NCBI RefSeq assembly: GCF_016026235.1
Contig: NZ_CP065613.1
Length of the DNA: 64,000 nucleotides
Strand: one strand, 5' to 3'
Source of the DNA: Escherichia coli
GTDB taxonomy: Bacteria; Pseudomonadota; Gammaproteobacteria; Enterobacterales; Enterobacteriaceae
Both the position numbers and the translations under genes were made by a program. Position 1 is the stretch's first letter. Each line of letters opens with the position of its first letter. This document shows, in pieces, positions 56,534 to 57,485 of this stretch. The notes beneath the pieces were generated by a model. It saw only the letters and a list, made by a program, of their open reading frames with translations. It did no database searches and was not told the DNA's origin.

Positions 56534-56657
56534 AACCCTTTCTCCCTGTTAATCATGAACAAATCATTCACCATGATTATAATATTTATCCCTGATATTT
56601 GTCTGGTTCTTTTTCCTTACAAACGGTTTCTGTGATTAATATATTCTCACTGAACAT

Positions 56658-57485
56658 GGTGGGCAGGCGGAATATGTCCGCGTCCCTAAAGGGAATGTGG
56701 GGCCGTTTAAAGTACCGCCTTTGCTTTCAGATGATAAAGCGCTTTTCCTTTCTGATATTCTGCCAACGGCATGGCAGGCAGCAAAAAATGCGCAGATCCA
56801 ACAAGGTTCAAGCGTTGCAGTCTATGGTGCCGGTCCTGTGGGATTGTTGACAATCGCCTGTGCACGGTTGCTCGGTGCGGAACAGATTTTTGTTGTTGAT
56901 CATCATCCCTACCGCTTGAGTTTCGCCGCTGACCGCTACGGCGCGATCCCGATTAATTTCGATGAAGATAGCGATCCGGCACAGTCAATTATTGAACAAA
57001 CGGCAGGTCACCGGGGCGTGGATGCAGTAATAGACGCCGTCGGTTTTGAAGCGAAAGGCAGCACCACGGAAACGGTGCTGACTAACCTGAAACTGGAGGG
57101 CAGCAGCGGTAAAGCGTTGCGCCAGTGTATTGCGGCGGTCAGGCGTGGCGGCATTGTTAGCGTACCGGGCGTCTACGCTGGATTTATTCACGGTTTCCTG
57201 TTTGGCGACGCCTTTGATAAAGGGTTGACGTTTAAAATGGGACAGACCCACGTTCACGCATGGCTGGGAGAATTATTACCGTTAATTGAGAAAGGATTAC
57301 TGAAACCAGAAGAAATTGTTACCCACTATATGCCGTTTGAAGAGGCCGCCCGGGGATATGAGATTTTCGAAAAACGTGAAGAGGAGTGCCGTAAGGTGAT
57401 TCTGGTACCCGGTGCACAAAGCGCAGAGGCGGCGCAGAAGGCGGTTTCAGGTCTGGTGAATGCGATGCCGGGGGGAACAATATGA
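56658..57485 (+). pseudogene. ybdR: 5'-truncated remnant of ybdR (Zn-dependent medium-chain dehydrogenase): only the Rossmann-fold two-thirds remains
   Basis: The reading frame opens with ...[19 protein letters not shown] and GAGPVGL lies about 45 residues in; an in-frame TAA at 56637-56639 and AT-rich non-coding sequence replace the expected roughly 140-residue catalytic domain. The only start available is a GTG at 56697. Confidence 0.6.

Follow-up and report, generated by a model that had tools for sequence, protein, structure and literature searches.

The closest described relative of the locus studied here is ybdR of E. coli K-12 (b0608), which is annotated as a putative Zn(2+)-dependent alcohol dehydrogenase and lies among ahpF, uspG, yldA, rnk and rna. 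In the passages of PMC6811581, PMC6001520 and PMC12288877 that name the locus, ybdR figures only as a pseudogene, as a neighbour of yldA and as a member of a convergent pair, respectively. The first of these passages lists ybdR among the lineage-defining pseudogenes of Shigella sonnei lineage CenAsiaIII in the setting of reductive evolution, the second reports the identification of the YldA small protein, and the third describes ybdR and yldA of K-12 as a convergent pair with overlapping transcripts. Because YbdR has no established substrate, the phenotype of ybdR loss is unpredictable.

We found that the 64,000-nucleotide stretch of E. coli DNA analysed here (the window) keeps the K-12 neighbourhood, with the gene order ahpF - uspG(-) - ybdR(+) - yldA(-) - rnk(-) - rna(-) - citT(-). 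The retained 3′ part of ybdR and the DNA downstream of it match K-12 at 99.2% identity over 1,302 nt, and this identity, together with the position between uspG and yldA/rnk, identifies the frame as ybdR by descent. The window differs from K-12 in lacking exactly 507 bp of the MG1655 chromosome by alignment (641,991-642,497), a segment that in K-12 comprises the 97 bp in front of ybdR and the gene's first 136 codons, with the ADH_N domain (Table 1). We conclude with high confidence that ybdR here is a deletion pseudogene of single origin, most likely reflecting the neutral loss of a dispensable accessory gene.

Table 1. Features of the uspG-ybdR-yldA region in window coordinates; a slash marks the deletion junction.
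Feature	Position	Strand	Description
uspG, universal stress protein G	56105..56533	-	ORF, intact, 142 aa; protein WP_000278505.1, annotated both in deletion carriers and in genomes with intact ybdR
uspG-ybdR divergent spacer, kept part	56534..56656		123 bp of 220 bp; 31.7% G+C
G>A substitution	56570		~-1 from predicted uspG start site; private to deletion haplotype
G>A substitution	56621		~-52 from predicted uspG start site, 35 bp from junction; private to deletion haplotype
Deletion junction ACA/TGG	56656/56657		From comparison with intact alleles; 507 bp gone, blunt
ybdR remnant, pseudogene	56657..57485	+	Third base of codon 137 to stop; 275 complete codons plus stop; ADH_zinc_N/Rossmann domain only
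Longest ORF in ybdR frame	56697..57485	+	GTG start, 262 aa; AAGGG 3 nt upstream
yldA, 29-aa small membrane protein	57489..57578	-	ORF; convergent with ybdR, stop codons 3 nt apart

Breakpoints were mapped against the intact allele of strain EC0880B, whose ybdR encodes 412 aa and in which the same missing 507 bp occupy positions 2158-2664 of the locus (L002). Ungapped matching to this allele runs from the left to 56656 and from the right to 56657 and fails directly beyond each position. The deletion takes 97 bp from the ybdR end of the spacer and continues 410 nt into ybdR, through codon 136 and two bases into codon 137; both the GGAGG ribosome-binding site and the ATG of the gene lie inside it. 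When used as a query, 1,701 bases of the locus aligned in two pieces over 2,208 bases (+507) in most complete E. coli genomes. The initial annotation had set the return of similarity to ybdR near 56658, had given the K-12 protein as about 412 aa and had proposed a deletion across the 5′ end of the gene and part of the spacer; the alignments bear out each of these points, with K-12 ybdR measuring 412 aa and starting within the DNA missing here rather than at the open frame that remains.

The junction is blunt, and the two breakpoint flanks (ACA/CCAGG... and ...TTCC/TGG) share no homology; no microhomology, insertion-sequence scar or repeat was seen at the breakpoints. We propose that one illegitimate, microhomology-independent deletion would have taken the 97 bp of spacer, the ribosome-binding site, the start codon and the first 136 codons together. 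Searches of the whole 64-kb window with the deleted 507 bp (blastn) and with YbdR residues 1-137 (tblastn) returned chance matches only (E >= 0.1). An in-frame N-terminal coding sequence nearby, which the initial annotation had named as grounds for rejecting a deletion, was thus not found in the window, and relocation of the N-terminus was rejected within the same 64 kb.

Each of the two breakpoints coincides with a CCWGG (Dcm) site of the intact allele, /CCAGG on the left and CC/TGG on the right (L002 2158-2162 and 2663-2667). With 19 such sites in 5,208 bp, the chance is about 2.2% for a single breakpoint and about 5e-4 for the pair, by post hoc calculation. EcoRII-type cleavage and religation, Vsr nicking, and slippage between CCWGG sites were each considered and rejected; because the cut positions differ and no CCWGG is regenerated at the junction, no single known enzyme activity fits, and the placement of both breakpoints at such sites is probably coincidence. 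The fusion also creates an ATG at 56656-56658 (ACA/TGG), which is out of the ybdR frame, sits inside an 83-aa ORF (56599-56850) and is probably meaningless.

Across E. coli, the ybdR locus exists in three states: intact, truncated as in the window, and absent with a replaced spacer. About 1,820 of 5,422 complete genomes have no ybdR, and about 3,600 have the full gene. In M16807, an example of the last state (L003 2035-2333, equivalent to window 56534-57600), the DNA next to uspG is a 124-bp spacer of unrelated sequence, beyond which lies a divergent yldA. Such alleles resemble the window in that ybdR is lost or absent between uspG and yldA, but differ from it in that the whole gene is gone without a remnant, unrelated or divergent sequence stands in place of the spacer and yldA, and the breakpoint is not the same. 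The start of yldA at position 2159 of the M16807 locus lies close to the left breakpoint (2157/2158), a proximity we regard as coincidence, and a common hotspot was ruled out by direct alignment, in which the M16807 sequence stops matching right upstream of the uspG ATG.

The S. sonnei CenAsiaIII pseudogene named in the relevant passage of PMC6811581 is an independent inactivation of the same gene in another organism, presumably by another lesion. As ybdR is absent from about one-third of E. coli genomes and inactivated in S. sonnei, it is dispensable, and its loss in the present lineage is therefore unremarkable.

The truncated state is rare. A 50-mer made of 25 bases from each side of the junction, which can seed a match on the junction only, was found in 2 of 5,426 complete E. 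coli genomes, FDAARGOS_943 and EC2641. PGAP annotates the gene in both (I6H00_RS11635 and MRO77_RS07265, respectively) as a zinc-binding dehydrogenase that is incomplete and missing its N-terminus, 828 nt in length, and recognition of the pseudogene in these sibling RefSeq genomes precedes our analysis. Around the locus, 4 of 4,701 bases separate FDAARGOS_943 from the window, and over 20 kb the two are essentially identical save for an IS1 in the citR of FDAARGOS_943. EC2641 is 98.9% identical to the window over the surrounding 20 kb, with no differences across 54696-56688. Both pseudogenes share with the window the junction and the two spacer substitutions.

These substitutions mark the same haplotype. 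Of the 3,601 genomes with the spacer, none but the two deletion carriers has both substitutions and thus matches the 71-mer 56560-56630 at 100% identity; among the best 15 matches, the other 13 (H94-H106) were each 97.2% identical, differing at 2 of 71 bases. Because the junction is identical, the spacer substitutions are linked to it and 54696-56688 is free of differences, we conclude that the deletion arose once. The deletion haplotype can serve to mark a rare E. coli lineage made up of the window strain, FDAARGOS_943 and EC2641, and the deletion is carried by a small set of strains; the 98.9% identity of the EC2641 flanks hints that the haplotype has spread by recombination.

The window and EC2641 remnants differ at 7 of 829 positions, comprising four non-synonymous and three synonymous changes. 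Three of the seven are also present in the intact allele of F9792, a pattern that indicates standing polymorphism or recombination rather than decay. One private change, R225S, belongs to the window lineage; the EC2641 remnant has three of its own, K148R, S161A and a synonymous one. The non-synonymous changes among them are compatible with relaxed constraint, in counts too small for a test.

The truncation could also matter through its neighbours rather than through YbdR, and the initial annotation had suggested that it may have altered the uspG promoter. In this reading, the deletion and the two private spacer substitutions were selected for a regulatory effect, either by altering the uspG promoter context upstream of about -88 or by reducing convergent transcription into yldA with ybdR itself left untranslated. 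The best consensus matches on the two strands, which are promoter-like sites and not mapped promoters, comprise a minus-strand site facing uspG (56605 to 56576, CAGACA-18-TATAAT) and a plus-strand site facing ybdR (56556-56583, TGAACA-16-TATAAT), each with 10 of 12 consensus positions. Both lie left of the junction and occupy the same positions in the intact EC0880B allele. Taking the minus-strand site as the uspG promoter would place the junction at about -88, with only the DNA beyond that point exchanged; experimental start-site data for uspG or ybdR were not found in the literature searched.

Some observations speak for such selection. Both substitutions (about -1 and -52 from the predicted uspG start site) are strictly linked to the deletion and occur together in no other of the 3,601 genomes, and ybdR and yldA form a convergent pair with overlapping transcripts in K-12 according to the relevant part of PMC12288877. 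The distribution of changes is also somewhat uneven, with two private substitutions in the 123-bp spacer versus none shared in the 829-bp remnant (p~0.02, post hoc), an imbalance that would be compatible with a regulatory role or with a complex mutational event. Both substitutions lie no more than 86 bp from the junction, and they may have arisen as by-products of error-prone repair in the deletion event itself or as later changes. The retained plus-strand site may allow the remnant to be transcribed, and a change in read-through from the remnant into yldA is conceivable.

Against this, the deletion leaves untouched the core promoter-like sites and the 123 bp upstream of uspG, the third of E. 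coli without ybdR has a functioning uspG behind wholly unrelated upstream DNA, and the haplotype is so rare (2/5,426) that no advantage is suggested. We therefore consider selection for a regulatory effect on a neighbour unlikely. Its adaptive form, in which the deletion and the changes at 56570 and 56621 rewired the divergent uspG promoter region or the convergent ybdR-yldA overlap, seems to us quite improbable; if true, it would mean altered expression of a stress protein or a small membrane protein in this lineage rather than simple gene decay. With neutral loss as the preferred reading, we infer that the deletion has little or no effect on uspG.

The consequences for YbdR itself are more direct. 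In Pfam searches, intact YbdR matched ADH_N (PF08240, residues 25-153, E=4.8e-26) as well as ADH_zinc_N, and the translated remnant matched ADH_zinc_N (PF00107, E=1.5e-12) with no ADH_N match, in agreement with the loss of the N-terminal catalytic domain that the initial annotation had claimed. Cys38, His60, Cys90, Cys93, Cys96 and Cys104 all fall within deleted codons 1-136. We take Cys38 and His60, which sit in conserved CGSD and GHE motifs, to be the catalytic zinc ligands and the four cysteines 90, 93, 96 and 104 to form the structural-zinc lobe, the ligand roles in both cases coming from knowledge of the family. The deletion thus takes away most of the GroES-like catalytic domain, together with the residues expected to bind the catalytic and the structural zinc. 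Retained in the remnant are GAGPVG (194-199) and Asp170, presumably the third catalytic ligand. The surviving 829 nt encode the Rossmann domain, which binds NAD(P), and the C-terminal segment; neither a start codon nor a ribosome-binding site stands in context.

Measured against a functional medium-chain zinc dehydrogenase, the remnant has the Rossmann GxGxxG domain and lacks ADH_N, Cys38/His60 and the four-cysteine structural-zinc lobe. The solved homologue 4cpd aligns to YbdR from residue 1 (E=5e-74), and matches to 2dph, 4jlw and 1kol (formaldehyde dehydrogenases and dismutase) begin at query residues 2, 3 and 17, respectively; because solved homologues align from or near residue 1, the full-length protein is the normal form of YbdR.

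The reading frame has likewise lost its means of initiation. Upstream of the remnant, an in-frame TAA (56637-56639) lies in a spacer that is AT-rich (31.7% G+C versus 52.3% for the window), and no in-frame start candidate of the remnant precedes GTG 56697, codon 151 of the original gene and 43 residues before GAGPVG; the initial annotation had described both the upstream stop in AT-rich sequence and an open frame beginning about 45 residues before the GAGPVGL motif. From there the frame runs to the TGA at 57483-57485. The native start codon and ribosome-binding site are gone, the gene is shortened relative to its orthologues and no compensating in-frame start is present. Because the start codon and ribosome-binding site are missing, we classify the remnant as a pseudogene, and because the front domain is gone as well and a stop lies just upstream, a working medium-chain zinc dehydrogenase is impossible.

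A different fate for the remnant would be expression from the plus-strand promoter-like site and GTG 56697 as a 262-aa NAD(P)-binding protein with a residual or new role. The TGAACA-16-TATAAT site is kept, the 262-aa frame is open, and both GAGPVG and ADH_zinc_N are intact. However, the deletion took the gene's own ribosome-binding site and ATG. The AAGGG located 3 nt before the GTG is at best a weak Shine-Dalgarno-like sequence, too closely spaced, and the 262-aa ORF is probably not a real gene. In medium-chain zinc dehydrogenases, the C-terminal segment packs against the N-terminal domain. By this family knowledge the segment's partner is gone from the remnant, which also lacks the entire structural-zinc lobe and all but one of the three catalytic zinc ligands expected. 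Non-synonymous private changes have accumulated, and PGAP calls a pseudogene. We judge an expressed, functional fragment very improbable, with the caveat that the GTG and its weak Shine-Dalgarno-like sequence could allow some translation of the 262-aa fragment. Returning to the preferred explanation of a deletion pseudogene, we infer that the remnant yields no functional product and that the loss of ybdR is neutral. The consequence for annotation is that ybdR here should be marked as a pseudogene and not as a 262-aa dehydrogenase; its significance beyond this is small.

An assembly or sequencing artefact, such as a collapsed or mis-joined contig at the junction, would also produce a shortened gene. 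Nothing was found in its favour, and no observation spoke against the deletion as such. Two further complete genomes, independently assembled in different projects, carry the identical junction 50-mer, one of them being only 98.9% identical to the window over 20 kb, and the breakpoints offer no repeats able to cause a collapse. With three independent assemblies carrying the same blunt junction, an artefact is effectively ruled out. We reject the possibility, equally without evidence in its favour, that the short form is ancestral and that other strains gained the N-terminal domain, as the remnant starts in the middle of codon 137 without a start codon, about 3,600 genomes have the full gene versus 2 with the short form, and distant solved homologues align from residue 1.

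Several further features were noted around the locus. Rfam identified no known RNA in the uspG-ybdR spacer; its sole match was the rnk leader downstream (RF01771, 124.9 bits, 58172-58280, minus strand), which lies upstream of rnk as expected at this locus. The IS1 in citR of FDAARGOS_943 (at about window position 51555; L005 12745-13442) is absent from the window and accompanies a length difference of about 776 bp over 20 kb, and EC2641 carries an IS903B-family element just beyond citR (L004 1-457). An upstream ATG extends the open yldA frame of the window to 62 aa (57489-57677, minus strand), the validated small protein being 29 aa, and both lengths occur in RefSeq records, as in F9792, where yldA is annotated at 189 nt (L007 1633-1821).
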